A stretch of 64,000 bases of DNA from Chiloscyllium plagiosum. Taxonomy: Eukaryota. The stretch is from positions 58,773,325 through 58,837,324 of the forward strand of contig NC_057718.1 of assembly GCF_004010195.1 (NCBI RefSeq). The letters run 5' to 3'. The position numbers and the translations under genes were made by a program. This document shows positions 3,190 to 59,040 of the stretch, one piece after another. The notes beneath the pieces were generated by a model, which ran no database searches, was not told the origin of the DNA, and saw only the letters and a program-made list of their open reading frames with translations. Position 1 is the stretch's first letter; every line of letters begins with the position of its first letter.

Positions 3190-3730
3190 ATGTGAGCATT
3201 ACTGACCAACATTTGCTGTGCATCCCTCATTGATTATGAATTGAGTGACTTGCTTGGCCTTTAAAGATAGCAGATTCTGGATCAGTGGTGCTGGAAGAGC
3301 ACAGCAATTCAGGCAGCATCCGAGGACAGGCAAAATCGACGTTTCGGGCAAAATGAAGGGCTTTTGCCCGAAACGTCGATTTTGCCTGTCCTCGGATGCT
3401 GCCTGAATTGCTGTGCTCTTCCAGCACCACTGATCCAGAATCTGGTTTCCAGCATCTGCAGTCATTGTTTTTACCCCTTTAAAGATAGCAGTTAAGAATC
3501 AACCACATTGCTGTGAAGTGGGCATTACATGTACACCTTTAGGGTAGCTGATCTCCCCTGCTAAAAGACATTAATGAACCAGAATTTTTTGACAAGAGTT
3601 GATGGCTGTTTTGTGACATCATGACTAAGGCTAGATTTATATGCCAGCTCCATTAATTAAATTTAAATTCTACTATGTTTTCCGAGTCTGCACCTCTGGT
3701 TTACCAGTTCAGCAACATTATTACTATGTG
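3190..3730 (-). mobile_element. tRNA-derived SINE, interrupted by a Penelope-like palindrome
   Basis: Shares gcagttaagaatcaaccacattgctgtg core with the copy at 46105-46435; split at 3274-3475. Confidence 0.6.
3274..3475. mobile_element. Palindromic Penelope-like mini-insertion (family A)
   Basis: Inverted arms 3271-3353 / 3362-3444, 31-nt tail, 16-bp direct repeat cctttaaagatagcag at 3258-3273 and 3476-3491. Confidence 0.8.
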
Positions 3731-4506: not shown

Positions 4507-4636
4507 GGTGAAAGCGAGGACTGTAGATGCTGGAGATTAGAGTTGAGAGTGTGGTGCTGGAAAAACACAGCAAGTCAGGCAACATCCAAAGAGTAGGAGA
4601 ATCAACGTTTTGGACAAATGCCTTTCATCCTCTGGA
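4507..4636 (-). mobile_element. Single-arm Penelope-like family A remnant
   Basis: aaagcgaggactgtagatgctggagattagag...gaatcaacgttttggacaaatgcctttcatc; same arm as the palindromes, with a decayed hammerhead core. Confidence 0.7.
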
Positions 4637-4810
4637 ATAAGACCCAGCATCTTCTTTTTGTGTGTGCAATTGAAATACTGGCTTACCCTGGATTCTCTGC
4701 AAAGGTTGATTTCATCCCTTTTTGACTGTGCGTTTATTTAAGGCATTAAGCTGTGGTTGTCAGTTCAGAGGGATATCCATCAGTTGTTGAGCAACAGGAA
4801 GGAAAGTAGT

Positions 4811-7799: not shown

Positions 7800-9240
7800 G
7801 GGTATTGAATAGGCAAATAATAATCAAAATGTGAAAAGGCAGAAAATATAAACAGGAGAGGACAACAGAAATTAGAACCAGAATAAACAATAATGGCAAA
7901 AGTCAATACTTAATACTCTTTATCTGAATATGTACAGTCTATGTATAAATGTGCTAATGGTGCAAATAAATAAATGAATATGACTTAATAACTATTACAA
8001 AGATGTGTTTGCAAGGTGGTCAGAATCTGGAACTCAAATTCAAGGATATTTGATATTCTGGAAAGCTAAGCAAAAATAGAAAATAAATGGGAAACATTGT
8101 TAATAAAGGACAGTATTAATGTGACAGTGAATAGTTGATTCAGGTGATATAGGTACAATAGATTATCATGTGTAGTCGAGAAGAAAGTGAGGACTGCAGA
8201 TGCTGGAGATCAGAGCTTATTTCCCTTGCTATTTCTTATTTCTAGCCAAGGTGACTACACATGATAGCTGAAAATGTGTTGCTGGTAAAGCACAGCAGGT
8301 CAGGCAGCATCCAAGGAGCAGGAGAATCGATGTTTCGGGCATGAGCCCTTCTTCAGGAATGAGGAAAGTGTGTCCAGCCTATCACCCTCACCTTGACCTC
8401 CTTCCACCTATCGCATTTCCAATGCCCCTCCCCCAAGTCCCTCCTCCCTACCTTTTATCTTAGCCTGCTGGGCACACTTTCCTCATTCCTGAAGAAGGGC
8501 TCATGCCCGAAAGTTCGATTCTCCTTCTCCTTGGATGCTGCCTGACCTGCTGCGCTTTTCCAGCAACACATTTTCAGCTATCATGTGTCGTCACCTTGGC
8601 TAGAAATAAGAAATAGCAAGGGAAATAAGCCAATAAGGTTCAGAGTCATCTATAAGCCCTTAAACAGTTGCCTCATTTTTGGAAAGAATACAAATCAGGA
8701 AATATTGGAGGTGTGTAAGAAGGATACCGAAGTGGTCTTAATTGATTTTAATCTCCATATTGACTAGATAAATAAAGGCAAGGATAACATGGAAGACAAG
8801 TTTATAGAGTACATCAGAGATTGCTCCTTAGATCAGTATGATACACAACCTATATGGGTATAAGTTATTTTAGACCTGGTAATGTGTAATGAGGTTGGAT
8901 GAATTTCAAATTCAGGTTGATGGATAGCAACTTGGGTCACAAACCAGTGTCCTTAAATAAGGACAATTCCAAAGGTAGATGAAGAAAGATTGCCTAAAGT
9001 GAGGCTGGGAAAATAGACTAAGGGGAAGGTCAGTAGCTGGGCAGTGGGAATCATTTAAGGAGATATTTCATAACACTCTGCAAAAATTATTACATTTATT
9101 ATTTATTATTAGAAAGCACTCTGAGAAGGATGAACCACCTACGGTTAATAAAGGCTGTCAAGGAGAGAATTCAGTCAAAAACTACACATAAATAAAGTGA
9201 TGAAAACTAGCTTTATGACAGAGGGTAGGAATTGTTTTAC
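7800..9240 (+). mobile_element. CR1 LINE, APE endonuclease region (decayed)
   Basis: Remnants of LYLN...YDLITIT and WLEIRNSKG...VIYKPLN...DFNLHID; interrupted at 8178-8578. Confidence 0.75.
8178..8578. mobile_element. Palindromic Penelope-like mini-insertion (family A) with captured flank
   Basis: TSD tatcatgtgt(a/c)gtc at 8164-8177 and 8579-8592; inverted arms; hammerhead core CTGAAGA at 8489. Confidence 0.8.
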
Positions 9241-10957: not shown

Positions 10958-11169
10958 GCAGACCTCTGACAGTGCCTCCTCGAAGGCTCTACCTCCCTAT
11001 AGCATTCTTTACAACTTCTCTGTGTTGCTTGATGAATCTGTGGAAGGTGAAACACATGACTCAAAATTGACTTTGGAAAGGATAAAATGACAACACTTTG
11101 CAGATTTTCATTTTCATTTTGTGGCAACAGCAACAACATTAAATGTTGTTATGTATCAAGTAGACAAAG

Positions 11170-18044: not shown

Positions 18045-18164
18045 GCTCCATATAGGCGGATGTCAGGGGCTGATGGGACATTGTCATCTCCAAGTCATCA
18101 AAGTGGAAAATGTGGATATAATTCATTGCCACAGAAACCTGAAGCTGTGGTTCATGCTATCAAG
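18045..18164 (+). CDS. CCDC85A: Internal coding exon of a CCDC85-family gene (likely CCDC85A)
   Basis: Acceptor ttgttctttacag, donor AAG|gtatgt; 120 bp, phase 0, open frame APYRRMSGADGTLSSPSHQSGKCGYNSLPQKPEAVVHAIK. QKPEAVVHA matches the CCDC85 C-terminus and SGADG..SSP matches CCDC85A, as I recall them; paralog assignment is from memory. Confidence 0.85.
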
Positions 18165-20803: not shown

Positions 20804-22673
20804 TGTAAATCCTTAGCCCCATGGTAAGAGCTGGTTCTCTGCAAAATAGGGCTAGCTGCAACAGAGCACATATGGCAAGACTGTGTACAATGAAAATGGT
20901 GTTTTAGGCCTGTTTTATACTGCTTCTAAATTTCCAGCAACATCAAACTGCTGGCAGGCATGATGGGCAAACTGCTGATAGTGTTACAGGACTTTCTTGC
21001 CTTCTAACATACCCCTCTTCCCTAAGCCAAACATTCCACTTTCAGATTCCAGACACCCAGTGACACCTACCCAGCTACATTAGCCCAAGGAGAAGAGAGA
21101 ACAACTCTACATCCAGAGATGTGACAAGGGAAACAATGAAAATCACATGAAAAAGGGGGGGCAATTAACTGCAGTGTTACCTATCTGATCACTATCAAAT
21201 GATTTTTGATAGAAGTGCAACTGTGTGAATGTCAATAAACGTCAAGATCAGGAACTACTTTACGGACACTCATTGTTGAACCTCCTCACTTACCAGCTGG
21301 GTAGCTATCATATGGCATTGTGGCTGACTGTATGATAAGAAAATCCTGGGCAAGATTCCTTCATCAGCAAGCACCACTGATATATGGAGATTATTTAATT
21401 ATTCATCTAATTAATTTATTTTGAGGTCTGTTGTGTGTACAATTATTGGCATGAGTATCTACTTTCCTCGAACTACACAGTGTAATTTATTTTATGTAAA
21501 GCATGCAATGATGTTTCTAAGGTATATACTTAGTTGGCCTATAAATTCATGTCTTTGTTTTTAGCTGTAATATTTGACAAAGTTTTGTCAGGTTTTCTTT
21601 CCTGAGCCAGTCTGGGTCAATTTTTAGAAAGATAAACTTCATGTCAGTGCAGTATATTAGAGCAACATTTGGCTAATGATAACTATGAAAAAATATTTAA
21701 ATGTTAAGGTGGCCCTTTCTAAACTTTTATCTATGACAAGGTCTCTTATATTACCTATTCTGAACACATATTTTATCGCAGATTTCTAAATAAATTTAGG
21801 GAAAGTGAAATATCTTGGCTTTAAAAACATTTTGCCCTATTTAGATCGAAAACTGGAGGAACAGTTCACTAATCAAATGGTTAATTTCTCAGATCAAGTG
21901 AATATATTCTTCTGTTTACAATAGTTCTTCCTCCCACTACATTTATCAAATTCTTTTACCAATTCCTTGTCCTCTCGGTTCTATAAACTGTCAGAACAGC
22001 ACTTTGTTATAGCTAGTATCAATTTACTTGAAGGAAATGGATGTGTAAAATAGAATAAAAATAGTGGGTTCATGTATGAAGTTTATCTCAATCTTACCAC
22101 TTTTACTTGGTTTTCTAGAACAAATGAAGTATTATGTGATTGCTAACAGTGCTAATCTGCACTAATGCCCAAATCACAACTTGAATCATATTTCCCACGA
22201 TGCCCAGTGCCTCCTTGTTTGAAAATGTAATCTCCAGTCTCCTTTCAAATCACTTTCATCTTTTGGAGTATTGTTTTCATGGACTGCCTGCAAGTATCTA
22301 GATCAGAATAAAGCGTGTCACATTGATCTGTTTTGTTGCAATCAGCCAATAATGAAACCACATTGATGAACTCTGCAATGACACAATAGCCAATCTTTAT
22401 TATTCCACACCCATTCTAGGAAAAAAAAGTATATAACTTAAAATAACATTTGAGTCAAATTTTCATCTTGATATTCCTCTTGTCTAAAAGCTAAAGTCTA
22501 CTATTGTTTGCTTGTCTCTGCAGTTGTTTTCAAATATGCCTAACACCACCTTTTTAGATATTCACATATATAAATATATGGAAGTTATTGTCATGTGATA
22601 ACAGACGTGTTGTAATTGTTTTGCTTCATGCTGCTGCTAATAATATCTATATTTGCATATTTGTTAAACTTAG

Positions 22674-22766
22674 GTTGTGGAAGTGCACGAAAAAGTGGAC
22701 AAAGATGAAGACTACGAGAATGACCTGAGTGAAACAGAGAAAGCAATAGTTAGAGAGATGTGTAAT
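22674..22766 (+). CDS. CCDC85A: Next coding exon of the CCDC85-family gene
   Basis: Acceptor aaacttag, donor AAT|gtgggt; 93 bp, phase 0, VVEVHEKVDKDEDYENDLSETEKAIVREMCN, in frame with the previous exon; DLSExEKAIVREMCN is the conserved CCDC85A/C motif. Confidence 0.87.
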
Positions 22767-23914
22767 GTGGGTAAATTGTGCCACAGTATTCAGTTGCTGT
22801 TGTGTCTGCCACCTAACTCTCATTTAGTGGATCCTTAGTTCTTGAAAATGAGCACAGCAAGTAAGGCTAAGAATTTAACAAAACACTTGTTATACTTTTA
22901 TTAAACAACTTTTTGTAAAAGGAAAAAAAAAGTCCTGTTAGAAAATAAGTTTCTTTTTGTTTCATTGCAGGCACAGCAGACCTGTTAGGAAATTTAGGGT
23001 GTTGCTCATAATACTCTCCATACTAATTCAAAAATATGAATCTAATATTAAATTCAAATACACATCTTAATTTAGTGTTGCCATTGTAATAGGTTTAATT
23101 CCTCATTTCTAGAAACTGGTTACAGGCAAGTTTAGATTATGAACCTTTCATATGGATTTAAAATCCATAGGACTGACATTTGTCCTGAGGGAAGTGAAAC
23201 TCAACTGCTTTGTCATGGGAATCCAATTCATTGTATCTTACAGCCTAGTCATTCCTAAGTATCGTGTAAACTTTAGGTGCCTCAAATATTTACCCAAAAA
23301 AGCAATGTTAGTGAAAATAACATAGCTTCAACATTTTTATGAAATTGACCAGTGTGTAAATGAATAGTGACATTTTTAGATAATTTAGCTAAATCTTCAT
23401 CCAAAGTGATAATGAGTAATCAGTGACTTAAGACAATGCATCAGCACTATTTTACAAAATCTATAAGGTTTTGTATTGATATCTCGTGAACTACCTACAC
23501 AAAACTGTAGGCAATGTATTATCAAGGAAGTGTTTTCATCAATGGAATGAAGAGTGTTGTTATGATTAGGCAAACAGGTTTTGCAATCTGTCAAGTATCA
23601 AACAGACTCATGTAACATTGAGATCAAACTTTTAGGCAAAAGACAAGGGATCAGTTTTTCCATGAGTAATACTATCAAGGGGCTGAAAAGAATGTCAGGT
23701 GCCGATTATGGTAGTAACATTGCTTGTTGGCCATGGTTCTGAATTTAGCAGTGAAGAGCTGTCCCCAGCTATCTGCTGGCATTTCTGATCTTTAAATAAG
23801 AAAAGAGTAATTGTAAAAGAGACTTGCTGTACTGCTTCTATCCAACCCATTCCAAAATGAGTATAGAGTGTATGAAAAATGCAGGTCTTTAAAGCCAAAA
23901 GTTTGAGTCATTGA

Positions 23915-28733: not shown

Positions 28734-31700
28734 CTTCAGCCTTCATAATATTCTGTTGATCTAAGATGGGAGCTCAATAAAAAGTAAGTCACAATGGATA
28801 GCGGGGATGTGAGAAACGTGGTAGTGAGATAGGATTGAATATTGTCAATAAACCATATGAAACCTGATATTATGATTTTAGGTGGCATTGCTAAGAAATA
28901 GCATAGTATCGAGATGAGAAATAGTTGCTTGGGAAACATTAGAGGTATTAGAGTGAGGAGCAGGAGGTAACTATTCCAGGTAATTCTCTGGTTCTGCTCA
29001 GAACATTAAAACTCAAGGGCACCATTTATTTTACTCCAGGGTAATAAAAGAAACAGATGAGAAAATTGCAGCTGCCATGCTGTAATATTTTATCTCCTTA
29101 TTTGGGAAATTTGTCTGGTTTTGATTGTTGGAAAAGCCAGTCAACTATTTAAAAGAAAAATGGGAAGGAGTAATGTAATAACTTGGGAGGAGATGATTGG
29201 AAGGTATCGTCATGAGAGTGAGAGGTCTGTGAGGACATTTGGGGAATGAGGTGTCATTTAATCAGAGACCTGTGACAGCAATAGGAATGTGCTCTGTTAG
29301 CGTTTGGGGAAGATGGTGGGTGTATGAGAGCAGAGACAGGCTGGGCAATGGGGAACCTGTGAGACTGTTGAGCTTCAGTAATATTTAAATGTCTCACTTG
29401 CCGAGTTGTTAAGCTCATAGAGCCATTACAGTCTCAGAGCTTGTAGAATTTTGACTCACAACTTGGAAAGCTGTGCACTTGAATGATACCAGCGATTATG
29501 GGTTCACATTATTAACGTAGGTTACAGAAACTTGAATTGATTTTTCTGAAGTTTAGAAGATAAAAGAATTATCTTATCAACATGGTTACAATTATAAATG
29601 AATACAGTAGAGTAGATATGAGCAATCTTTTTTACCCATGATGAAATCCATAAGGAAAACTCTTAAAAGTTACCATGATCTAACTGGATTGGAGAACATG
29701 GGCCAGAGATTGAATAGTATATTTGTATCCCTATATTCCCTTGTGGGTATGAGAAAATGAAGAATGACAAAGAATTTGTTAAAAGTTACCAGTCCCTTCT
29801 TTGGGATCCTTATTGTGAAAGGTGACACAATGCATCAGATGGAGTAGATCTGAAGTTCTGAGAATAATGTGAAAGCAAGAATAAAGGAGTTTTGAGCTTC
29901 ACTTAAGCATTGTCTTCTTGACCCGGGATACTTTGAACATAATTTAGCCAGTATTTGATTGATTGATTTGAAAAATCACACCAGAAGACAAAATCTAGAT
30001 GGCTACAAATAGTTTTAATGGCAATTCAAATCTATTAAAAAGCACATTCATGGAAGCTTGGAAACATATTCATGTCATCTCCCCAGTTAAAACAATTGAA
30101 GCATATAAACAGACATTCCATAAAGTCCAAACTGTTAAATTACTTGAAAATCATGACGCACATGACTTTTATTGTGTTTTTTTACCTGTTTAATCCTTAA
30201 TATTTTAACCTATGTGTCTGTATAGGTTTTGAAACAGAACAATAATTGAACAACTTTCTTCAAATAGCAATTTATTCTAATGCAGATTTTCAAACACATA
30301 TTATCCATTTCTAGTTTAGTCCCATCTCATTTTTCATATTTCCAGTTTTAGAACAGTTACATTCTTTGGATATGCAAAATGTCAGCTAAGCTTTACTCCC
30401 CTTTATTATGGACTTTATATAGTTGTTTTATATATTTCATTTTGAAGAATGAAATGTGTTAAAGAAGGCATTGTGATGAATTGGTTTTTGTTAGTTTTGC
30501 CAATGAAAAGGAATCCTACAACATGAAATTCAATACTGCCTTCTGAATGCATGTTGAAATGCATCCCTGACATGCTAGTGTGAAATAAACACACAGATTG
30601 GTGTACAATATGTTCTGAGCTATACAATCTGGCAATATTTTAAAATTCCTTTAATTTTAGCTCATTATTTATGATGGAATGCCTTCTTCCTTATCAGTCA
30701 GTATTAATCAAAATGTGTTCATCTTCTGTGCACTTTGACAGGATTGGTATAATATATGGTTCAAGCCCTGGAAGCATTTGTAACCTGCTGTTTTAGTCAT
30801 ACAGAATGTTTGAATGTATTAATGTTTCGAATCAACCCCAATTTGAATGTTTATGCCTTTAAATATCTTATTTTAAGTAATATGATGACTTAACCTATTC
30901 ACTACTAAATTAGGTGTTATCCTGTCTTTCCAAATAGTTATTTGGAATAGTTATTTATGAGAATCTTGTGAATTCCTATATCTTACTTCATTAGATTATG
31001 GGCGTGAAAGTTGGTTTGAATAGTTTATAAGCCCTTTGTTTTCTGAAAAATATTTTTGAAAGATTTGATAATGTTGGTCTCTTCTGTCAGAAATGATGGT
31101 GAACATTTGAGTCATTTTTCTGAAAAAAATGGTGCTTACTTCAAGTAGTGAATATGTTAAGCATTTTTCAAATTGCTGTACAAGATGGCTGAATGTAACA
31201 GACTTTGGTGGTGCTTGCGCTTTTACATGTGATTTTAGAAAAAAAATGCATTTACTCCATAGATCAGTAAATAGTAGGGTGCAATGGAATTAAGAAACTT
31301 GAGGTCAAATTATATTAAATGAAAATTTAAATTCTATAGGTTGTTGTAAACTTTTGCAAAACTTTCAAAAATGAAATGTTCCAAAGCAATGTTACCTTAA
31401 ATATCTGGTTGCTATGCTCAGCCAGTTTGTTGAACAGCCTAGTCCCCTTTAATGTTTGTGGGCCCACTTGTACATATCTTAAGGGAATATTGAATTCCAT
31501 ACACAGCTGAATTATTCCCTGTACAACAAATGCCTAATTGTTGTGTGGCCACACACCAAAATAGCTTTGAGAAAGCATTGCTCCTTTAGTCTTCCCCAAC
31601 TAAAGCCTGTGACATTACAGCTAAAGTTTGTCATTAACCTTAAGAGAGTTGTTGTACTATCATTTTTTATTTTTCTTTAACTTCTTACATATCCTGCAGC

Positions 31701-33104: not shown

Positions 33105-33401
33105 TATAATATATTTTGTTAATTTGGACAAAGGATCAGTATTTTGCAGAGCAAAATGCACTATAATTCTTTCAATGAGAACAACATTGTTCACAAAGCA
33201 AAATAATTTTCTTTTTCACAGTGGGATTCATTAGGCATATTGGCATTACTCCAGACCAGGAGTTAATAGGTTTGTGTCCTGGGCAGTCCATAACTAGAGC
33301 TTCAGCTTAATTAGGTCTGTCACTAGTTTCCAGGAAGGCAGCTGAATTAACAAACAGGTGCTTTAGCTTGATTTAACTCAACTTGCCAATATCTTGTCTG
33401 T

Positions 33402-33888
33402 GGAGGAGAAAGTGAGGTCTGCAGATGCTGGAGATCAGAGCTGAAAATGTGTTGCTGGAACAGCACAGCAGGTCAGGCAGCATCCAGGGAACAGGAGAAT
33501 CAACGTTTCGGGCATAAGCCCTTCTTCAGGAATGAGGAAAGTGTGTCCAGCAGGCTAAGGTAAAAGGGCTTATGCCCGAAACGNNNNNNNNNNNNNNNNN
33601 NNNNNNNNNNNNNNGCCCCTCCCCCAAGTCCCTCTTCCCTACCTTTTATCTTAGCCTGCTGGACCTCTCCGCGCCCACCCCACTCTGACCTATCACCCTC
33701 AGCTTGACCTCTTTCCACCTATCGCATTTCCAATGCCTCTCCCCCAAGTCCCTCTTCCCTACCTTTTATCTTAGCCTGCTGGACACACTTTCCTCATTCC
33801 TGAAGAAGGGCTTATGCCCGAAACGTCGAGTCTCCTGTTCCCTCGATGCTGCCTGACCTGCTGCGCTGTTCCAGCAACACATTTTCAG
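33402..33888. mobile_element. Palindromic Penelope-like mini-insertion (family A), containing an N gap at 33584-33614
   Basis: 15-bp TSD caatatcttgtctgt at 33387-33401 and 33889-33903; inverted arms; 38-nt tail; intact hammerhead core at 33796-33831. Confidence 0.82.
33796..33831 (+). ncRNA. Minimal type-I hammerhead ribozyme motif
   Basis: attc-CTGAAGA-a-GGGC ttat GCCC-GAAAC-GTC-gagt; stem I attc/gagt includes a G-U pair. Confidence 0.65.
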
Positions 33889-36727
33889 CAATATCTTGTC
33901 TGTTCCTAGCTCATCCTTAGAACTATTACTAGTAACTGTAAAAGTGGGCAAACAGATCTCCCTGTGCAATTTAAAAGGACTTGTGAATGGCTCCATAAAA
34001 ATGAATTATAATGGATTCTCCCTCTGAGATAAACATCTGGGACAATTTACAATGATTGAATGGCTTTGAGAAGAAATTGTTTCCTCATAACACTTTTTGA
34101 CAGTTTTGCAATCAGACTATCTAAACATTTATCGAATAAAATTGCTTCAAATGCTGAATGGTGTCCCTTTCTATCTGAAGTATTGTTTCGCTGCCAGTTA
34201 TGAACACAGTGTATAAAGACCATGCAAATGTTCATAAATTTCTGTCAATTTCTTTCTTGTCTCATTTGATTCCATTGTAAAGGCCTTAAGAATTCTTTGC
34301 ACACCTATTAATTCTGAAATTGTAACATTTATCTAAGTTGTTGTGCCTGCTGTGTTTAGCTGCAGTTCAAATTTGAAATGCTTTTGGGAAATAACATGCT
34401 ATGTAAATTTTGTGGAAATTTTTGATATTGTGTTATTTTTTTATATCCATGATACAGTCAAGTATGGATCCATAAATGTAGCATTAATAAAACATGAAAC
34501 AACTATTGTCTTCATTCTGTCTTTTTTGTATACATTACAGTAAGAGATTTCTGTGTGCTCCATTTCATTTGGGTGCAGACATCTACATTATTTCACTGCA
34601 ATTGATGACCAAGCAGGAGTCTCTATTTGTTATATTTGCACAGTGGTTGGTGGTTAGCATGACACCAGCCTATTTTATCAACCTAATTTTGAACCTAAGT
34701 TGAAATGGTACAATGACGTGGCCTCCTGACAACCTGAGTAGTGCAATTGAATCACGCAGTCCAGAAAGCTCACAAGTTTTATTTGAAGCCATGTAGAATT
34801 AGGAGTGGTAAAACTAGACTTCGCACATCTCGGCCAGGAGAGAGAAAACTACGCCTGGAGTCCTGTTCCTAATAGCTCGTGAGTGATTCCAACTGTAAAT
34901 GTGCATTTTTAAATGTCAGGATGATTCTTGGCTGTGATATTCCACTTCTAACTAACCTGCCAATATTCATTGCCTAAGTCACCGAACCAAATGGGCAAGG
35001 TGCCTGCAGTTGGTGAGTGCTTGGGGAATCAACCTTCAAGACAAATCCAACAGGTATTTAAGGTATGATTTTGTGCTCCAGTGGCTGCGAAATCAAATGT
35101 GCCACTAATATGTATGCATGTGCATTGACTTCCAAAACTAATTACACAACACACATTCTAAGAGGTTTGCTTGGTGTAAAGGTTTGCAGTTCAAATTTTA
35201 CTGTTCTGAAGCAAATTATACATGACAAAACTTACATTTTAGTTTAAATTGTTGAGGATGGTGAGAAAAGAATAGAAAATGGCCTTGTTTATTTTGGTAA
35301 TAGTGATGCTACAGAATTCCAAAATGTTGTTGAAGGCAATGTTGTAAGGACTGTCAAATGGGAAAGGTATGCAGTTGGTGTTATTTCATATTCTTTTCAA
35401 GTTATGGTTTGTAGCTTAGCAAAATTGTTTATATTTACAATAAATTCTAAGGATTAATCAAATTATTCAAGTCAATTATATACTAATTATACTCATTATA
35501 TCTAAACTTGTATTTGTGCACTCCAGTTAGTGCTTTTTAAATTTCTATTTAATTCACAGCCCTTTAGTGCCTTATTTTCCTTAATGTTGGTTATAAAGTG
35601 CTTCATTGCATAAACCTGAAAACCAGCATATGACGTATTGGCAAAACAGCTTTGGGCACATCATCACATGAATTCACAAAAAATCCATTCTGTGTACCTT
35701 GTTCCTTGAGGGCATAACACTGCCTTCAATTTGAGGCCAACTGGTATATATTTAGTCAGCCACATTGCAAGTGAACATTAATTTAAGTTGTCATAGAAAT
35801 TAAAGTTTTTTAATTGGGTTGTAAAGACTGATTAGTCTAATTCTGTACCTGCTTAGGATCATTTGAAGTTAGTACTATGGCAAATGTACAATGCTTCTGG
35901 CGTTTCTTTAGTTTTTCTCATATATTAAAAAAATAGAATTTTGCAAAAACATAAGCTCTCCCTTCTTCACTCTGTCTTTATCTGGAAGAAAGCAAAATTT
36001 GGATTCTTAACTAGATAGGGATTAAATGGTTGATATAACAAACAATGAAGCATTTGTTCTATCATTGCTTGTGTATCTAATCCAGTTATAAACACTGACC
36101 TGAAACTTTGATGTTCCATGGCTCTGATGTGGGTAAATTTATGATTTGTGATTTTGTGGGAAGCCATAACTAAATAAACTAATATCTTCTGCTTTTTCTT
36201 GCAGGATCATCTGTATCAATTCTGCCTTGACATTTACAAAACCAACAGATTTCTGATATTTATAAATTGTTAATACAAATAATTTTTAAATTAGGAATAA
36301 TCCTGGTTACAACAGATCTCATGTCTTTCCAACTTATTTTGTTATATGGTAAACTGTAGTGCATGTGTCTTCATAAAGCGCCCAATGAAAAACATTACAA
36401 GAGATTGATTTAGTTCACTTTTCCCCTGGACAAAACTATTTCATTTTCAAGCTCGAAAGAACAGAAGCTGGGAGTTCATTGACCTTCAAGATTAGAATAC
36501 CAGTAGCTAACCTTTCATTTTGGCAGAATTCTAATTAAAGAATCTAGTGATTGACATTGATATTGAGATAAAATTCCCCTTACTTTAATTAATTATCACC
36601 ATCAGTGGCTGCATTACAAGCCTCACCCAGCGAGTCGCAGTGAAAATTTAGACAGGCACATTTTATTTTAAAATTTATTAATCTCATTATTATAGTTGTG
36701 CAGAATATCAAAATAAACAACTTCTGA

Positions 36728-39190: not shown

Positions 39191-42100
39191 AGAGTCATAG
39201 ATATGTACAGCATGGATGCCCACCAGATATCCCAAACTAATCTAGTCGCATTTGCCAGCACCCAGCCCAGATCCCTCCAAACCCCTCTTATTCATATACC
39301 CATCCAGATGCCTTTTAAATGTTGCAATTGTACAAGCCACCACCACTTCCTCTGGCAGCTCATTCCATACATGTGCCACCCTCTGCATGAAAATGTTGCT
39401 CCCTTAAGTCTTTTTTATATCCTTCCCCGCTCATCCTAAACCTATGCCTTCTAGTTCTGGATTCTCCCACCCCAGGGAAAAGACCTTGTCTATTTACCCT
39501 ATCCATGCCTCTCTATAAGGTCACCCCTCAGCCTCTGGTGCTCTGGTGCCCCAGCCTATAGCTCAAATCCTCCAACCCTGGCAACATCTTTGTAAATCTT
39601 TTCTGAACCCTTTCAAGTTTCACAACATCCTCCCAATGGGAAGGAGATCAGAATTGCATGCAATATTCCAAAAGTGGCCTAACCAATGTCCTGTACAGCC
39701 ACAACATGACCTCCCAATTCCTGTACTCAATATACTGACCAGTAAAGGAAAGCATACCAAACACCTTTTTCACTATCCTATCTACCTGCGAATCCACTTT
39801 CAAGGAGCTATGAACCTGCACTCCAAAGTCTGTTCAGCAACACTTCCTGGGACCTTTCCATTTAGAGTGTAAGTCCTGCTGAGATTTGCTTTTCCAAAAT
39901 GCAACACCTCGCATTTATCTAAATTAAACTCCATCCACCACTCCTCAGCCCATTGGTCCATCTGATCAAGATCCCGTTGTAATCTGAGGTAACCTTCTTC
40001 GCTGTCCACTACATCTCCAACTTTGGTGTCATCTATAAACTTACTAACTATAACACTTCTGCTCACATCCAAATCATTTATATAAATGACAAAACGTAGT
40101 GAACCCAGCACCGATCCTTGTGGTACTCCACTGGTCACAGGCCTCCAGTCTGAAAAACAATCCTCCGCCACCATCTTCTGTCTTCTACCTGTGAGCCAGT
40201 TCTGTATTCAAATGGCTAGTTCTCTCTATGTTCCATGAGATCTAACCTTACCTACAAGTCTCCCACGGGGAACCTTGTCGAACACCTTACTAAATTCCAT
40301 ATAGATCATGTCCACGCTGTGTCCTCATCAATCCTCTTTGTTACTTCTTCAAAAAGCTCAATCGGGATTATGAGATGATTTCGCATGCACAAAGCCATGC
40401 TGGTTATCCCTAATAAGTCCTTGCCTTTCCAAATGCCTGTACATCCTGTCCCTCAGGATTCTCTCCAACAACGTGCCCACCACCGATGTCAGGCCCACTG
40501 GTCTATAGTTCCCTGGCTTGTGCTTACCACTTTTCTTAAATAGTGGCACCACGTTAGCCAATCTCCAATCATCCGGCACCTCACCTGTGACTATCGATGA
40601 CACAAATATCTCAGCAAGGGGCCCAGCAATCACTTCCCCAGCTTCCCACAGAGTTCCAGGGTACACCTGACCAGGTCCTGGGGATTTATCCACCTTTATG
40701 CATTTCAAGACATCCAGCACTTCCTCCTCTGTAATGTGGACAATTTTCAAGATATCACCATCTATTTCCCTCAATTCTATATCTTCCATGTCCTTCTCGA
40801 CAGTAAATACTGATGCAAAATACTCATTTAGTATCTCCCCCATTCCTGCAGCTCCACACAAAGGCCGCCTTGCTGATCATTGAGGGGCCCTATTCTCTCC
40901 CTAGTTATCCATTTGTCCTTAATGTATTTGTGAAGACACTTTGGATTCCCTTTAACCCTATTTGCCAAAGTTATGTCATGTACCTTTTTTACCCTCCTGA
41001 TTTCCCTCTTAAGTATACTTCTACTGCCTTTATACTCTTCTAAGGATTCTTTCAATCTATCCTGTCCATAACTGACATATGCTTTCTTCTTTTTCTTCAC
41101 CAAACCCTCAATTTCTTTAGCTGAAAATGTGTTGCTGGAAAAGCGCAGCAGGTCAGGCAGCATCCAAGGAACAGGAGAATCGACGTTTCGGGCATAAGCC
41201 CTTCTTCAGGAATGAAGAAGGGCTTATGCCCGAAACGTCGATTCTCGTGTTCCTTGGATGCTGCCTGACCTGCTGCGCTTTTCCAGCAACACATTTTCAG
41301 CTCTGATCTCCAGCATCTGCAGTCCTCACTTTTTCCTCAATTTCTTTAGTCATCCAGCATTCCCTATACCCTACCAGCCTTCCCTTTCACCCTCACAGGA
41401 ATATACTTTCTCTAGACTCTCGTTATCTTATTTCTAAAGGCTTCCCATGTTCCAGCCGTCGCTTTACCTGCGAACATCTGCCCCCAATCAGCTTTTCAAA
41501 GTTCTTGCCTAATGCTGTCAATATTAGCCTTCCTCCAATTTAGAACTTCCACTTTTAGATCTGGTCTATCCTTTTCCATCACTATTTTAAAATAAATAGA
41601 AATATGGTTGCTGGCCCCATAGTGCTCCCCCACTGACACCTCAGTCACCTGCCATGCCTTATTTCCCAAGTGTCGGTCATGTTTTGCACCTTCTCTAGTA
41701 AGTACATCCACATACTGAATCAGAAAATTTTCTTGTACACTCTTAATAAATTCCTCTCCATCTAAACCTTTAACATTATGGCAGTGCCGGTCTATGTTTG
41801 GAAAGTTAAAATCCCCTACCATAACAACCCTATTATTCTTACAGATCACTGAAATTTCCTGACAAATTTGTTTTTCGATTTCCCACTGACTATTAAGGGA
41901 TCTATACACAATCCCAATAAGGTGATCATCCCTTCCTTGTTTCTCATTTCCACCCAAATAATTTCCTTGGATGTATTTCTGGAAATATCCTCCTTCAGTA
42001 CAGTTGTAATGCTATCCCTTATCAAAAACACCACTCCCCCTCCTCTCTTGCCTCCCTTTCTGTCCTTCATGCAGCATTTATATCCTGGAACATTATGCTG

Positions 42101-43777: not shown

Positions 43778-43999
43778 AGGGCAAAAGTGAGGACTGCAGA
43801 TGCTGGAAACCAGAGTAGAGATCAGAGTGGTGCTGGAAAAGGTCAGCAGGTCAGGCAGCATCTGAGGAGCAGGAAAATCGACGTTTCGGGCAAAAGCCCT
43901 CCATTCCTGATGAAGGGCTTTTGCCCGAAATGTCTATTTTCCTGCTCCTCAGATGCTGCCTGACCTGCTGTGCTTTTCCAGCACCACTCTGATCTCTAC
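43778..43999. mobile_element. Palindromic Penelope-like mini-insertion (family A variant) inside CR1
   Basis: Diverged TSD ttcaccataaagac / ttcaacgtaaagac; CTGATGA at 43907-43913 followed by GGGC tttt GCCC GAAA; 36-nt tail. Confidence 0.8.
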
Positions 44000-44097
44000 T
44001 TCAACGTAAAGACGACTTCCTTGATTTTTAAGAGGCCCTACCCTCTTTCTAGTTACCTTCTTGCTCTTTATGTATTTGTAGAATCTCTTTGGATTAT

Positions 44098-50487: not shown

Positions 50488-50604
50488 AACATATGGAATC
50501 AGTTCTGAAGAAGGGTTGCTGGACTCGAAACATTAACTCTGCCTTCTTTCTGCAGATGCTGCCAAACCCACTGAGTTTCTCCAGCAACTTCTGTTTTGTT
50601 TCAG
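50488..50604 (+). mobile_element. Penelope-like family C end with hammerhead core
   Basis: AGTT-CTGAAGA-a-GGGT tgctgg ACTC-GAAAC-ATT-AACT; related copies at 51195-51322 and 63378-63465. Confidence 0.65.
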
Positions 50605-50699
50605 GTGAATCTTCAATTTTGGATTGCATGTCCATGTTTAACAGTAACATGTAAGGTGACAGCATAGTTCTTTATTATATGGAGTCACTGATGAATAAC

Positions 50700-51520
50700 A
50701 ATGACCTAGAACTTGGTTCATGGGGCACAGTTTCTTGAAGTTAATACAAATCTTGGAAGTATTGTGGACCATGAAGAAGATAGTGTAAAACTTCAAAAGG
50801 GCATAGATCGGTGGAATGCACAAACAAGCAGCAGATACATGAAATAATTCACTTAGGTAGGAAGAAGGTAGAGAGACAATATAAAATGAAGTCTAGAATG
50901 ACCTGTGCATAAATCATTGAAGGTTCTAGGTCAGATTGAGAATATGGTCCATGACAAATGCAATATCCTTGTCAATTATTTTCTAAGTTGGAGAGAGTAC
51001 TAAAGCAAGAAATTTATGTTAATCTTAAATTATTGTTAAAATATTTGTTCAATCTCAAATGGAGTGTTGCAAACATTTTTGGGTATAATGCTTTAGGAAT
51101 GATGTGAAAGCATTGGGAAGGGTGCTTAAAAGATACATTACAATAGTTGCAGGATGAGGATCTTCAGTTCGACAGACAGATTGAGGAATATGAAGTTTGG
51201 ATGAAGAGTCACTGAACTAAAAATGTTAACTCTGCTTTCTTTCCACAGATGCTGTCAGACCTGCTGAGTTTCACCAGTGATGTCCTTTTTTGTTTCAGAT
51301 CTCCAGCATCCACAGTTTGTTTTATTGGAGGAAGATTGAACTGTTTTTGGAGAAAGCAAAGTTCAGGCAGAATTTAATAAAATGATCAGAATCATGAGAG
51401 AACAATATAGATAGCAAAGAAACTATTCCCATTGATGAATCATGAACCTGAGGGTAGTGATTAAATATCATTGACAAGAGAAGCAATGGTGATGTGAAGA
51501 AAAGGCTTCCATCCAGCATG
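50700..51520 (+). mobile_element. Old CR1 3' region, split by the Gypsy element (resumes ~59755-59965)
   Basis: ...catccagcatg | gtgcttaagatctggaatgcactg... reconstitutes the CR1 QxVxxxWNAL segment. Confidence 0.7.
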
Positions 51521-52212
51521 TGTTATAACACGGGGTAAACCCTCCTGCTTAATTTAAACCTGCAACACAGAAAAGATTTATCCCATGCAGTAATCTGTGA
51601 ACGTTTGAGAGGCCAAGAATTAGTTAAAGTAAAAGTAACAAATTTATTTCTTAAAGTATAACAGAAAACAACTAACTAACAACACTTTACAATGCCTTCC
51701 TCTAAGCTATCCTTTACCTTCCCATCCTACAATACTAGCCTGATAAAAACCCCTGATTAAGATTTACCAAAATTCAACTTTTCAAAAACTAGCCAGACAT
51801 CGAATCTTCTTTTCTTCTTCTTAGGGATTTCTGCTTCACAGGTTACTGAACAATAAAGGTATCTTTGAGAGCTATTCTCTGGGCAGTCTATAGATCCCAT
51901 TGGCTTGGCAGTTCTCCTCTCAACTGTTCAATTTTCCCCAGTCTTATTCCCCCAAAGCATCGGATTGCGTAATTGGCTTTTCAGCTTGTCAATAAACGGA
52001 ATTCAAACTTGATTGGAGTTTTGTATTTTTCAAGGTATAATTTAAACTGATTGGCCTAATTCAAATCTGTTTTGTCATTTCCAGACAACCTAGCTAATCT
52101 ATATTTCAACCAAGTGTTACATTGTTACCTTACTCAGAACACTTGGTACTGTCAGGTAGTTCTGCTAGCTTTAACTCTCTTAAAGGTATAGTACATCCAC
52201 ATCTTCATAACA
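51521..52212 (-). repeat. 3' LTR
   Basis: TGTTAT...ATAACA termini; preceded on minus by purine tract AAGGGGTGG (52213-52221). Confidence 0.92.
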
Positions 52213-52344
52213 CCACCCCTTAAGAAAAAAATGAACCATCATAATGAAAAGATGGCTTCAGTTTTTTTTCCTATTCTTTAAACACATTGCCCTAACATAA
52301 AGATAACTTCAGTAGAAGTTCACCTGAACTTCTTCCCATATACG

Positions 52345-52396
52345 TGTGTGTGTGTGTGTGTGTGTGTTTGTATATATATATATACATATATATATA
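52345..52396. repeat. (TG)n(TA)n microsatellite within the Gypsy 3' UTR
   Basis: gtgtgt run followed by tatata run. Confidence 0.9.
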
Positions 52397-52437
52397 AAAA
52401 CATTAAATAAATACAAATCTCATCTAAACTTTATCAG

Positions 52438-53650
52438 TTAAGTCCACGATAACGCATCTGTGATTACATTCGTATGACCCACAACGTGTACACTTTTTAA
52501 ATTAAAATTCTGTAATATAAGACTCCAATGAAATAGTCTCATATTTTTGTCTTTAAAGTGTTCTAAGAATGTAAGAGGATCATGATCCATGTACGCAATC
52601 ATCTCCAAAACACTGATCGTGCCATACACATTAAAATGTTCTAAGGCCAGTACCAAACTCAACAGTTCTTTTTCGATTGTGGAGTATTTCCTCCGGTGGA
52701 TGTTGATCTTCTTCAACAAGTAACCAACTGGCACTTCAATCCCATCCTCATCTTTCTGCTGGAGTATAGCTCCAATTCCTATGTCACTAGCGTCGATGGT
52801 GATGTTAAAAGTTTTTGAGAAGTTTGGTGATGCTAAAACGAGTTTGATGGTTAATATGGCTTTCAAATGGTTGAATACCTGCTAGCATTGTTCTGCCGCC
52901 GAACCTTTGTGTTCTTCTTCAGCAAATTGGTTAACGGTCCCACGATGCTGCTGAAGTTTGGAACAAACACCCGATAGAATCTGCTGAGTACTCAGAATTG
53001 AAGCATCTCTTTCTTCAAGGTTGGTTGTGGAGATTCCTTGATGGCCATTGCATTTATGTTCCCGTGGGGTCAACCTTCCTAGACCGATGTTATGTCCCAA
53101 GATCGTGGCCTCTGCTTTTGTGAATTCTGTCTTATTTAAGTTTATCACCAGTTTTTCCTCTTGTAGCCATTCAAAGATCTTACAAAATATCACTACCACA
53201 TCCAAATAGATTGCACAGTTTGTTAACCCAGCCACAACTCTGCTCATGAATCTTTGGAATGTGGAGGGATGTTCTTCATCCCAAAGGGCATTATTTTAAA
53301 CTGATAAAGCCCACTTATGGTTACAAACGCAGAAATTGACTTTACCCTCTCAGATAAAGGTCCCTGCCAGAAACCACACATTAAGTCCAACTTGGTGATG
53401 TTACCGGCTTGTCCGACTTTCCCGATACCGACTTTCTCGATACCGTCTTCCAATCTAGGATTTGGATATGAGTCCGATTTTGTAACAGTGTAGACCTTCC
53501 GATAACCCACACGGTATCGTTGAGTCCCATCCGGGATGGGAACTAAGATGATCCGTGAACTCCACTTGCTCTGGCTTGGTTCGATGATGTCCTTGTCAAG
53601 CATGACCTCCACCTCCATCTGGACCTGACTGGCTTTGAAAGGATTAAGTT
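52438..53650 (-). pseudogene. Gypsy RT and RNase H remnants
   Basis: DSYPNPRLED, KLDLMCGFWQ, GLYQFKIMPFGMKN, AIYLDVV (YLDD box); DASDIGIGAILQQ, YSTIEKELL, DHDPL. Confidence 0.92.
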
Positions 53651-54034
53651 AATAGGGGTGTTGTTTTCCCTATGTCTACTTCATGTACAATAGCATTAGT
53701 CCTCCCCATCTGATTCTTACATACATCCTTATACTGCAGTAAGAAATGTTTCAACTGTGTTCTGTGCTCCTGAGACAGATAGCTTACTAATCTATCCCAC
53801 TCCTCCAGGGCCTCCACATCATCTGGATTTGATTCCTTACTCTGCGGGGCAGTAACTAACACCTGTTTCTCCAGTTCTTTCTCTCCAGTCCTATACGGTT
53901 TCAACATGTTCACATGACATACCCAATACCTTTTTTTTCTATCTGGCATCTTTGCCAGATTGTTGACCTGACTCAACTTTTTCTCAATTTGATAGGGATC
54001 ATTAAACCTGGCTTTGAAGTGATCACCTATCACT

Positions 54035-54298
54035 TTAGGGTATAGGTTTGCTCGCTGAGCTGTAGGTTTGATATCCAGACGTTTCATTACCTGGCTAGGT
54101 AACATAATCAGTGGCGACCTCCAAGTGAAGCGAAGCTGTTGCCTCCTGCTTTCTATTTATATCTTTCTCCTGGATGGGGTTCCTGGGGTTTGTGGTGATG
54201 CCATTTCATGTTCGTTTTTTGAGGGGTTGATAGATGGCATCTAGATCTATGTGTTTGTTTATGGCGTTGTGGTTGGAGTGCCAGGCCTCTAGGAATAC
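54035..54298 (-). mobile_element. Penelope-like family B 3' fragment inserted in the Gypsy pol
   Basis: 11-bp TSD cacctatcact (54024-54034, 54299-54309); minus strand encodes FLEAWHSNHNAINKHIDLDAIYQPL (GIY-YIG-like C-terminus), then a hammerhead motif at 54075-54114. Confidence 0.8.
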
Positions 54299-54309
54299 CA
54301 CCTATCACT

Positions 54310-55330
54310 AACATATCATCCCCTCTGGAAAACATCTGAGACTCAGAGCTTTTTATCTGCTACCTGCTTCATTCTATACCATGCCCGCTTAAGGTGCCAT
54401 TTAGCTAATGCATCCACTCGATTTAATCTCTCTCTCGCCTCCGATACGTAATCTAAGTGCGAGGTCTCCAACTTTAATCCTGTCAATTTTTCTTTTATTA
54501 ATGTCAAAGGGCCTCTCACTTCATGACCAAATATTAACTCAAAGGTATTTAACTGAGTAGATTCATTTGGGGCATCTCTAATGACAAACAATATGAATGG
54601 GATACCTTTATCCCAATCATTCGGGTAATCCTGACAGTATGCTCTCAACATGGTCTTCAAGGTCTGATGCCACCTTTCTGAAACTCTCCTGGATTCAGGA
54701 TGATATGCACTGGATTTAAAGTGCTGTATAACTAAGCTATCCATAACCTCCTTAAACAGCCTAACAGTAAAATTTGATCCTTAGTCCAACTGAATCTCTC
54801 TGGGTAGCCCATACCACGTGAAGAAAGTTACTAATTCCTCTACCACTTTTTTTGCCTTACTACTCTATAATGGCATTGTCTCCGGAAATCTGTTAGACAC
54901 ATCCATTACGGTTAACAGGTACTGGTTCCCACTTTTCGTTCTTGGGAGGGGACCAACACAATCAATTATAACCCAGGTGAAAGGCTCTTCAAATGCAGGA
55001 ATTAGCTACAAAGGTGCTGGTTTTATTGCCGCCTGTGACGTACCTACCATTTGGCATGTTTGACACGCACAGGAAAAGTTGACCACATCCTTGTGCATTC
55101 CAGACCAATAGAAATGTTTTTGTTCTTTAGCCTGAGTCTTTCATGCCCCTGGATGACCTCCTACAGGTAGTTCATGTGCTATCCGTAGCCCCTCCTGCCT
55201 GTATGCTACCGGCAACACAACCTGGGGCACTTCGGCCCATTTCTCCTCTGCACTAACCTGCCATGGTCTCCATTTCTGTCTTAGGATTCTATCTTTCAGA
55301 TAATAAATCTCCGGAATATTCTCTGCTGCC
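54310..55330 (-). pseudogene. Gypsy integrase remnant
   Basis: AHELPVGGHPG...CACQTC (HHCC), IIDCVGPLP, EIQLD*GSNF, SSAYHPES...ERWHQTLK. Confidence 0.9.
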
Positions 55331-55929
55331 TTTTCGGACTACGCATCTACATATATATCTTGTATCATCTTGTCTTGGTAATTTGTGGGATAGATGGACA
55401 GAAATTTAGCATTCCCTTATGTAAGATCAGGTTGGAGTGCTAACTCAAGACTTGGGAAGTTACAGTGGGAGTGATTGACAAAGTGTCAATTCCAGGAATT
55501 CAGTTCATTCTTGGGAATGATTTGGCAGGATCCAAGGTGGGAGTGATACACCTTGTTGTGGAGAAGCCCAAGGAAGACCAAGAACAGGCAGAGGGTCAGT
55601 CGGAAGTGTTAGTAACTTTCTTCACATGGTATGGGCTACCCAGAGAGATTCAGTTGGACCAAGGGTCAAATTTTACTGCTAGGCTGTTGCAAGCCTCTTA
55701 GCATTTCAGGATTAAACACTTCTGCCTGATCCTCTGCCTGTTCAGGCTTTTCCTGCACCATTACATCAAACAGAATATCCACTAACTGAACCTCAACTCC
55801 TTCATATTTTTCTTTACTTTTCACTTCGTGCTGTGACTTATGATCTGGTTGCCACACAGTCTGGGAGAATACCAGGATATTTCTGTTTTAACTCCTCAGT
55901 TTCTTGGTCTTCCTTGGAAGTATTAACTC

Positions 55930-58922
55930 CATACCCAGCCCCTGCCCATGCTGTGCACTCTCCTGCAGCTCCTTGACTTTTCTTGGGGTTTCCTTTACTA
56001 CCTTCACAAATGCCACTGGCCTAGCTTTTTTATGCCACATCTTTTCCCACAGTGCCTTTCTTTAATAACCAGCACTGTGACTTTACTTGCCACACTTTAC
56101 CAAACCTGAGGCCTTTCACGTCCTTTCCACCCTCTTGGGCTTCTTTTTTATTCTGTGGTAAATCATTACTAGTGCTCTCTACTCTTGGTTTTGTAGTGTA
56201 GGATCTCCCCATCTCCGAACTTCTATCCCTCACAGGACGAAATTCTGGCTGGAAGATTGTCTTAGACACCAACATGTACTCATCTGCTAATTCTGCTGCC
56301 CTTCTCACTTCCTTAACTTTCTGTTCCTCCACATGAATTCTTGCCATCTTTGAAAGTGAGTTTTTAAAATCCTCCAGCAGAATAATTTCTCTTTGAGCCT
56401 CAAAAGTCATATCTATTTTCAAAGCACGCGCCCATTGATCAAAATGACTATGTTTAATTCTTTTGAACTCAACATAAGTCTGACCTGGTTCCTTCTTTGA
56501 GTTTCTGAACTGCTGTCTATATGCTTCTGGTACCAATTCATCAGCACTTAAAATGTCCTGTTTAACCGGTGACTATGGCAAGGACTGAATGACATCACAG
56601 GTTCTAAGAAGAGACAGTGCAAGATAGCAGATGATGACATATCCCTGCCAGATCATCTCAATACCTTCTATGTTGCTTTGAGCAGAATTTTGGTGGAGAG
56701 GTAACACCTATTCTGACAAGTCCTGAAGAACCTATCCCAACAGTCACTGCATCAGAGGTCATATCAGTTTTCATTTGTGTGAATGAGACCAGACGGTGTA
56801 CCAGGCCGTGCACTCAGAGCATACACAGATCAACTGGCAGAGGTCCTCTCAGACATCTTCAAACTAACCCTGCAGCAGGCCACTGTTCCTGCCTGTTTCA
56901 AGAGGGCCAACACCATCCCTGTGCCTAAGAAGGTTCATGCAGCATGTCTCAATGACTACCGCCCTAACTTTGGGGGTCATGAAGTGCTTTGAAAGGCTGG
57001 TCATGGCATTAAGCAACTCCAGCCTCCCCATTACTCTTGACCCACACCAATTTGCCTATCGGACCAACAGATAAACATCAAATGCCATATCACTTGCCCT
57101 TCATACTCCCTAGCACATCTTGACACCAAGAACAGCTACGTAAGAATCCTACTCATTGACTACAGTTCAGCCTTCAACACTATTTGCCCTCGAGATTGAT
57201 TACTAAGCTTAGTGAACTCATACAAAGCACCACTCTGCAACTGCATCCTCAGTTTCATGACCCACAGGGCACAATCAGTGAAGATTGGGGACAATATTTC
57301 ATCGTCACTAACACTCAGCACTGGAGCCCCCCAGGGCTGTGTACTCAGTCCCCTGCTGTACTCACTGTATACCCATGACTGCATCGCCAGATACCACAAT
57401 AATGCCATTTACAAGTTCGCTGTTGACACCACCATAGTCGGTCGAATCTCAGATGGCGATGAAACAGATTACAGACGGGAGGTGGAAGACCTGGAAAAAT
57501 GGTGCATTGAGAAAAATTTAGCTCCCAATGTTGGCAAAACCAAGGAGCTCATTATTGACTTTCAGTGGGATGTTCCTCATGCGCCCCTACACATTAACAG
57601 CACAGGGGTGGAACGAGTGAAGAGTGTCAAGCTCCTGGCTGTGGTCATCCACAACAAGCTTTCTTGCCTCTTCATGTGGAATCACTGGTTACAAAGGCCC
57701 AACAATGTCTCTTCTTCCTCAGGCAGCTGAGGAAATTTGCCAACTTTTATAGGTGCACCATCGAGAGCATTCTGTCTGGATGTACTACTACCTGGTATGG
57801 TAATTGTACTATTCAAGATCAGAGACAGTTACAGAGAGTGGTGAACTCGGCCCGGACAATCACAAAGGCCAATCTCCCATCTATGGAATCCATCCACCAG
57901 GTCCACTGACAAAGGAAAGGCCGCCAGCATTCTCAAAGATCCATCCCAACCTGACAATATTTTTCTACAATCTCTACCATCAGGGAGAAGGTAGAGAAGC
58001 CTGAACACATGCACCAGCTGGTTTTGAAACAGTTTCTAGCCTATTGTTATTAAAATACTGAATGGACTCATAACCTCTTAGCATTCACCTGTACCTGTGT
58101 TTTGGTTTTTGCCACTGTTTATCTATTATTTACTATCTATGTTGTTTAACTCTGTGATCTGTCTGTATTGCTCGCAAGACAAAGCTTTTCACTGTGCCTC
58201 GGTACACATACAATAAATTCAATTCAATTCAATTCAATAATCTCTTGACCCCTCATCTGACAGCACGGCAAATACCTCACTAGCTCTGCCTACCAGTTTT
58301 GTCTGAAATAGCATTACCAAAAATCCTTGGATGACTCCATCTGCCTAGCCAATTTTTGAAATGAAACAATGAAGGCTTCAACATCTTCCTCATCAAAATG
58401 CAGCAGAGCTTTGACATATTTGTGTATATCGCTACCTTCTCTTTTAACCTCCATTCTGTTAAGTTGACTTTGCTGATGAAGTTGCAACTTCTCAAGTTCA
58501 AATTCTCTCTTATTGTCTCTCCCTTTCTTCTCTCTCTCTTTGCTCAGCTATAAATCTTCTCTCTCTCTTTTTCCTCTCTCTCTCTATCTTTTGACTTCTC
58601 CCTCTCTTCCTCTCTCCCCTCTGTCTCTCTCATTTTGTTTATCTTCTAACTCCAATTCCCTCAACTGTAATTTCAGTTTTTCTACCTCTACTCCACTTGT
58701 CTGTTTGAGTAATTCCCTTACAATTTCAGCTTTACGTTTGTCCTTGGTTAAATCCAAATCTAACTTTTTTGTCAATTCTAAAAGTATGGCCTTTTTCTTT
58801 CCTTCTAAACTTGCTTGGCAAATTTGAAAATCATCTTCGAATCCCAGAGCCTCTTTAGCAATATTAAGAGCCATTTCTCTCACTTTTAATTCAATCAACC
58901 ACAAGTCAATGAAATTAAGCAA
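55930..58922 (-). pseudogene. Gypsy gag remnant with SCAN-like capsid domain, split by Rex1
   Basis: Charged coiled-coil N-terminus (58584-58922); VPEAYRQQFRNSKK...REIILLEDFKNSL...AAELADEY (56030-56536). Confidence 0.85.
56568..58237 (+). mobile_element. Rex1/Babar LINE, 5'-truncated, inserted in gag
   Basis: PDGVPGRALRA, IPVPKK...[37 protein letters not shown]; (aattc)n tail. Confidence 0.9.
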
Positions 58923-59040
58923 ATTGTCTCACTTAAGTTTTATTTAAAGATCTAGGACACTAACCTGTAAATGTTTAAATCTGCTGGGATTTTTCATACC
59001 CACCCCCCAAATCTATTCAAATCTGTCTAAACCACTTAAA

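Follow-up and report, generated by a model that had tools for sequence, protein, structure and literature searches.

Minimal hammerhead ribozymes of type I (min-HHRs) were described in metazoan Penelope-like elements (PLEs) in 2014, and those of Schistosoma were reported to show no cleavage as monomers and low cleavage as dimers (PMC4209133). PLE insertions often contain an inverted truncated copy and a one-sided tail of 30-40 bp (PMC8557442, PMC3846280), and self-priming on an antisense template has been proposed as the origin of the inverted copies (PMC3846280). For the Anolis carolinensis PLE protein (Poseidon element PAc), it was reported that the protein cuts and extends both strands, that two internal reverse-transcription start sites define the tail, that uncleaved RNA is preferred, and that the PAc hammerhead cuts only in the presence of the protein (PMC11167929). 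In addition, non-LTR retrozymes derived from PLE pLTRs have been reported in one chondrichthyan (bioRxiv 10.64898/2026.07.22.740005).

Here, we analysed a hammerhead motif within a 64-kb stretch of the Chiloscyllium plagiosum genome (the window). It is highly probable that this motif is the hammerhead of a shark PLE family, that it was carried in by a dead-on-arrival insertion of a pLTR end, and that it is most likely inert at this position.

33796..33831, + strand: minimal type-I hammerhead motif (core 33800-33827; predicted cut 33827/33828)

A previous reading of the sequence alone had claimed a full hammerhead core here, and the sequence reads exactly as it stated. The CUGAAGA box (C3 to A9) occupies 33800-33806 and is followed by a bulged A (33807), a 4-bp stem II (33808-33811 with 33816-33819) with a 4-nt loop, and GAAA at 33820-33823. 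Helix III is the loop-less palindrome ACGU at 33823-33826, whose self-duplex has a predicted energy of -3.1 kcal/mol, and C17 is 33827, which places the predicted cut site directly after this nucleotide. Such motifs are far from expected by chance. A loose hammerhead pattern had five matches in the window against 0.40 expected, and none of 100 shuffles reached five. A relaxed descriptor (core, stem II and paired 15.2/16.2) also had five matches, with a mean of 0.045 in 200 shuffles, and a strict one, in which stem II also had to reach 4 bp and stem I 3 bp, matched only 33796-33831, with a shuffle mean of 0.005 (200 shuffles). No Rfam family reached its gathering score in the 64-kb window, and the Rfam hammerhead models had no match up to an E-value of 10 in 33380-33920, probably because the loop of helix III is missing and not because the motif is absent. 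Exact-pattern scans for the motif gave 0 matches in viral contigs and 0 in metagenome contigs.

Every position of 33796-33831 agrees with the metazoan PLE min-HHR consensus (fig. S3 of PMC4209133), which bears out the earlier assignment to the PLE hammerheads that are expected to act as dimers. The features shared with that class as described there include the CUGANGA box, one bulged base, the G10.1-C11.1 pair and GAAA, a loop-less palindromic helix III ending in U-H, a short helix I (2-5 bp) and a U-rich 5' flank; copies that are mostly truncated and opposite-strand pairs 100-700 bp apart were also already reported (PMC4209133). Judged by its sequence, the motif belongs to this class. The short stem I noted before does have 4 bp here, and apart from a more distant subfamily listed below no other copy has four. 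The G at 33830 is a private T-to-G change (U in the five other subfamily-A arms examined) by which stem I gains its third and fourth pairs, whereas the sister arms have a U.U mismatch and a stem I of 2 bp. The family's stem I of 2 bp plus mismatch lies at the short end of the published range, 2-bp examples being present in fig. S3 (PMC4209133). The 56 motifs of that figure include none from a cartilaginous fish, and a search of the readable supplement for shark names gave no match (PMC4209133). We found no paper on this shark repeat family, which may be listed in the supplements of bioRxiv 10.64898/2026.07.22.740005.

The motif is part of the forward arm of a head-to-head (fold-back) insertion, which is built as follows:

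33387..33401, + strand: left target-site duplication (TSD), 15 nt
33402..33567, - strand: inverted arm with a 38-nt tail (33402-33439) and a second intact hammerhead core (33502-33529)
33564..33664, + strand: insertion centre, with a coreless forward fragment, an N gap and a near-duplicate
33665..33889, + strand: forward arm, a 5'-truncated pLTR-like PLE end lacking the tail
33889..33903, + strand: right TSD, 15 nt, identical to the left one

The earlier description of the 33.8-kb copy stands for the forward motif, and its inverted twin with an intact core on the - strand had been overlooked. The arms 33440-33567 and 33762-33889 (128 nt) are 96% complementary, and the left arm reaches 38 nt beyond the right one. 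In the centre, a forward piece of the hammerhead (20 nt, no CUGA box) is found together with an assembly gap of 31 N (33584-33614) and 50 nt that repeat 33735-33784 with one mismatch; because of the gap and the duplication, its true build is uncertain.

Further copies occur throughout the window, as the sequence-only reading had noted. The places it gave were confirmed, with cores at 41182-41209 (-), 43907 (+, with CUGAUGA), 8489 (+, mutated) and about 3350 (+, lacking the CUGA box), and in each fold-back insertion a second arm has to be added to that list:

3274..3475, both strands: fold-back of the second subfamily (B) in a CCDC85A intron; both arms lack the CUGA box; 34-nt right tail, 16-nt TSD
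8178..8580, both strands: fold-back of subfamily A in a CCDC85A intron; helix III mutated in both arms; 14-nt TSD (1 mismatch)
41119..41334, both strands: fold-back of subfamily A; intact core 41182-41209 (-), + arm lacking C3; 32-nt right tail, 15-nt TSD
43778..44000, both strands: fold-back of subfamily B; CUGAUGA box, UUUU loop; 36-nt left tail, 14-nt TSD (2 mismatches)
4508..4638, - strand: single decayed arm with tail, third subfamily; intronic, antisense to CCDC85A
50497..50614, + strand: single arm of a more distant subfamily; stem II 5 bp, stem I 4 bp, helix III mismatched
51194-51327 (+), 63403-63458 (+) and 10860-10959 (-): relatives of the 50497-50614 arm, the last one weak (E 0.018)

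A profile search of the window retrieved 13 arms at E <1e-20 together with weaker pieces. The full core with a self-complementary helix III is kept in only three arms, those at 33800 (+), 33529 (-) and 41209 (-); at 43907, stem I is without its first pair and helix III is no longer self-complementary. At 8178-8630, about 50 nt of the right flank recur in inverted form in the left arm, where they separate the tail from the body. The switch points show AGC/GC microhomology, as if the template had switched by fold-back on DNA while the element integrated or later.

In all, five insertions in the window have an inverted 5'-truncated copy beside a direct copy. Each is flanked by a TSD of 14-16 nt, with mismatches of 0 (33.6 kb), 0 (3.3 kb), 1 (8.3 kb), 0 (41.2 kb) and 2 (43.9 kb). 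The TSD scores were 16, 15, 15, 11 and 8, and among 100 random flank pairs none reached 11 and four reached 8. By this measure, four of the TSDs clearly exceed chance and that at 43.9 kb does so marginally; a convincing TSD was absent from all three single arms tested. Exactly one arm of every fold-back carries a tail of 32-39 nt (left in three, right in two), and the junction between the arms differs in all five, including among the three that belong to one subfamily. None of 12 arms begins at the cut site. The 5' end lies within -10 to +15 of C3 in 8 of the 12, a count that may be biased since non-A arms were measured against the subfamily-A reference.

Head-to-head arms, a tail on one arm, target duplication and 5' truncation are likewise found in endonuclease-bearing PLEs (PMC3846280, PMC8557442). 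On the other hand, the TSDs of the rotifer examples measure 8-10 nt and the shark ones 14-16 nt, and the shark insertions consist of two stumps, each about 80-225 nt long, that enclose no ORF (PMC3846280, PMC8557442). As in PAc, the hammerhead lies near the pLTR end; the two start sites of PAc would explain the tail, and PAc genomic copies derive from uncleaved RNA (PMC11167929). The PAc ORF starts at stem II, whereas the shark ATG, with a frame open through the tail, is found about 20 nt past the cut (PMC11167929). This ATG opens a frame of 25-26 codons (41258-41335 and sister arms, in subfamilies A, B and C), in which one 3-nt indel preserves the frame; the 3.3-kb copy is frame-shifted. The ORF of the element may begin with this frame. 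In subfamilies B and D (50556, 51249 and 43.8-43.95 kb), the ATG directly follows a pyrimidine tract and CAG, a strong splice acceptor, whereas subfamily A has no AG ahead of it, and the C. plagiosum gene model XP_043542746.1 enters the repeat at that ATG. A splice acceptor at this position could place the ribozyme within a 5'-UTR intron of the element.

We recognised no ORF with RT and GIY-YIG domains by eye among the 35 long ORFs of the window. A protein search with the reading frame of the pLTR end gave one candidate and nothing significant, and a profile search with the same frame gave four matches, three of them repetitive artefacts and one a C. plagiosum PDZ-protein gene model that includes the repeat. 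With no RT/GIY-YIG ORF tied to the repeat, membership of the PLEs is drawn from the motif together with the insertion anatomy.

The following scheme would account for this anatomy. The PLE protein would nick both DNA strands about 15 nt apart, and uncleaved element RNA would be copied from each nick. Copying would start at the distal site on one side, leaving the tail, and at the proximal site on the other, leaving none; the two short copies would then join near the ribozyme to give a fold-back. The window data fit two such priming events at insertion and the published self-priming (PMC3846280) alike. In the full-length element, judging from the literature, the ribozyme probably cuts weakly, as a dimer formed through the ACGU palindrome and with the aid of the element protein.

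The motif had also been placed in an intron of CCDC85A, sense to the host pre-mRNA. The following exons were located in the window:

18045..18164, + strand: internal coding exon of CCDC85A, 100% identical to Chiloscyllium CCDC85A proteins
22674..22838, + strand: last coding exon of isoform X1, with the stop codon (22838)
30506..30589, + strand: homologue of an alternative last exon of Scyliorhinus torazame, ending at about 30583 and followed by AATAAA at 30584; the frame is not kept

Gene and strand had been named correctly, but the 33.8, 41.2 and 43.9-kb copies lie downstream of every coding exon found. The stop at 22838 also ends the main CCDC85A isoforms of other sharks and rays, and isoform X2 ends at 21046-21063. 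The 33.8-kb copy lies 10,962 nt past the CCDC85A stop and 3,211 nt past the AATAAA at 30584. Given this stop and the farthest alternative last exon at about 30583, it is outside any demonstrated CCDC85A intron, although the transcript might conceivably extend that far, through a long 3' UTR or towards a last exon outside the window. Only the 3.3, 4.6, 8.3 and 10.9-kb copies are intronic, with + strand cores that are truncated at 3350 and carry a mutated helix III at 8489; any copy upstream of 18045 counts as intronic because the preceding CCDC85A exon is absent from the window. As each fold-back insertion has one arm on either strand, a sense orientation is uninformative, and we rejected it as a signal.

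A donor that bony vertebrates use to splice to a conserved last exon is read through in sharks and rays, which is how their CCDC85A proteins end. The bony-vertebrate last exon is the end of 112 of the 116 proteins with the exon-end motif. This exon has no match in the 64-kb window, and among the matches listed (31 sequences) none ends in it.

The fate of the motif in RNA was predicted by equilibrium folding, which takes in neither tertiary contacts nor protein. For the bare 36-mer, the predicted minimum consists of stems I and II (-8.4 kcal/mol), with pair probabilities of 0.27-0.39 in stem I. Within the natural flanks, the predicted stem I probability falls to 0.000, and the hammerhead-ready fold has a predicted probability of about 1e-6 even if the antisense arm is left out. 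Inside whole insertions, stem II had a predicted probability of 0.000 at nine of the ten sites folded on either strand, the exception being the coreless fragment at 33566, and forcing the hammerhead fold within the whole 33402-33889 insertion would cost 52.6 kcal/mol. The predicted sequestration of the 33.8-kb ribozyme was the same for gap lengths of 0, 31 and 300. For the bare motif of the 33.8-kb copy, the active dimer is predicted to be 3.8 kcal/mol less stable than the best dimer fold, and for family-type copies the difference is about 13 kcal/mol. The self-cleavage in host RNA that had been suggested is thus not favoured by these predictions. Since the antisense arm is upstream on the + strand and is made first, it would already be present when the ribozyme emerges, and in read-through RNA it should sequester the 33.8-kb ribozyme. 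Lying 11 kb past the stop and paired with the antisense arm, this copy is most likely inert. The fate of such RNA, if there is any, would be that of a long hairpin (editing or dicing), not self-cleavage. It is plausible that intronic fold-backs are processed as long double-stranded RNA, for which the ribozyme would not be needed. RNA editing acts on palindromic repeats of pre-mRNA, heavy editing of Penelope having been reported in a lizard (PMC5625713), and it is the likelier RNA-level fate of intronic fold-backs.

To look for excess conservation of core nucleotides across the family, we compared six subfamily-A arms and counted only changes private to one arm. The core and stem II had such changes at 4 of 131 sites, all CpG, and the downstream body at 7 of 372 (Fisher p = 0.49); outside CpG the counts were 0 of 101 and 5 of 354 (p = 0.59), with little power against weak selection. 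The rate looks neutral, at low power, and the loss of the helix III palindrome among the copies keeps pace with CpG decay. The variable stem II loop with kept pairing, which had been pointed out before, was rejected as covariation because stem II is invariant in the copies listed there; no covariation was seen within subfamilies A and B. Across subfamilies, six cells change on both sides, a value reached by 7 of 500 shuffles in an alignment of ten related sequences with one stem II pair out of register in the divergent rows. The compensatory changes are G-C to A-U in stem II and C-G to U-A in stem I. For these few, related sequences, they point to selection on the parent elements, not on the copies of the window. 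A host-domesticated intronic hammerhead of the RECK type, which would be one conserved copy in an intron whose canonical fold is under selection (PMC6155905), was rejected: the motif is multi-copy, it lies outside demonstrated introns and its core shows no excess conservation.

A different role could be imagined if the ribozyme did cut host RNA whenever it is sense and unpaired, the inverted arm acting as an antisense safety catch. Fold-backs would then be tolerated in genes and single sense copies with an intact core would be purged. Of the single arms, the two in the intron are antisense and the three beyond the gene are sense (p = 0.1, calculated by hand); this strand bias could also come from a splice acceptor present in sense orientation in some subfamilies. 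We regard the safety catch as improbable. In a genome with so many young copies, counts could show whether unpaired sense ribozymes are purged from introns, and how the inverted arms arise.

It is quite improbable that the fold-back unit is a non-autonomous element, retrozyme-like or MITE-like, which is transcribed and reinserted as a whole palindrome. Five short palindromic units with TSDs within 64 kb would suit such an element, and so would the PLE-pLTR-derived retrozymes of one chondrichthyan (bioRxiv 10.64898/2026.07.22.740005). Non-LTR retrozymes share the type-I hammerhead, the PLE-pLTR origin and the non-coding nature with the shark repeat (bioRxiv 10.64898/2026.07.22.740005; PMC7229834). 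However, they are arranged as head-to-tail arrays, whereas the shark insertions are head-to-head pairs with unique junctions (bioRxiv 10.64898/2026.07.22.740005). No head-to-tail units with two intact cores, as required of an active retrozyme in that description, were present among same-strand neighbours in the window, where the 31-N gap could hide a short tandem. The tail side also varies among the five, and their centres all differ, even within one subfamily, by which a MITE-like unit with a fixed centre was rejected.

We consider it very unlikely that the repeat is a SINE-like retroposon moving without a PLE protein, in which a hammerhead is present by chance or was borrowed. The lack of a PLE ORF linked to the repeat would agree with a SINE, but there is no poly(A) or simple-repeat end, and the combination of inverted arms, one-sided tail and PLE-specific loop-less core is that described for PLEs (PMC8557442, PMC3846280).

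The least credible possibility is that the 33.8-kb copy cuts host RNA, in a longer CCDC85A isoform with its last exon outside the window or in RNA that runs past the poly(A) site, by dimerising with another copy: it is the sole copy passing the strict descriptor, its bare 36-mer is predicted to form stems I and II, and exon 22674 contains a donor used in isoforms of other species, by which a distant CCDC85A last exon may exist, but the last exon of bony vertebrates was found neither in the window nor at the end of any of the 31 listed sequences, the ribozyme is predicted to pair with the antisense arm, whose transcription precedes its own, the predicted hammerhead fold and active dimer are both disfavoured, and published min-HHRs showed no monomer and low dimer cleavage (PMC4209133).

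As the probable hammerhead of a PLE family brought in by pLTR-end insertions, the motif adds a bamboo-shark-like lineage to the known class of PLE hammerheads, and its fold-backs provide clean examples of PLE insertion anatomy.

Other repeats are also present in the window. A decayed LTR retrotransposon, which we take to be Gypsy-like, occupies 51521-59754 (-), with LTR copies 85-92% alike. A LINE-type RT fragment is found inside it at about 57200-57730, as well as a pair of 80-nt inverted arms (54755-55688; 95%, 774 nt apart), apparently an internal inversion or a fold-back rearrangement. Many LINE fragments, presumably CR1-like, are scattered on both strands at 19.5-20.6, 24-25.7 and 39.2-45.6 kb.
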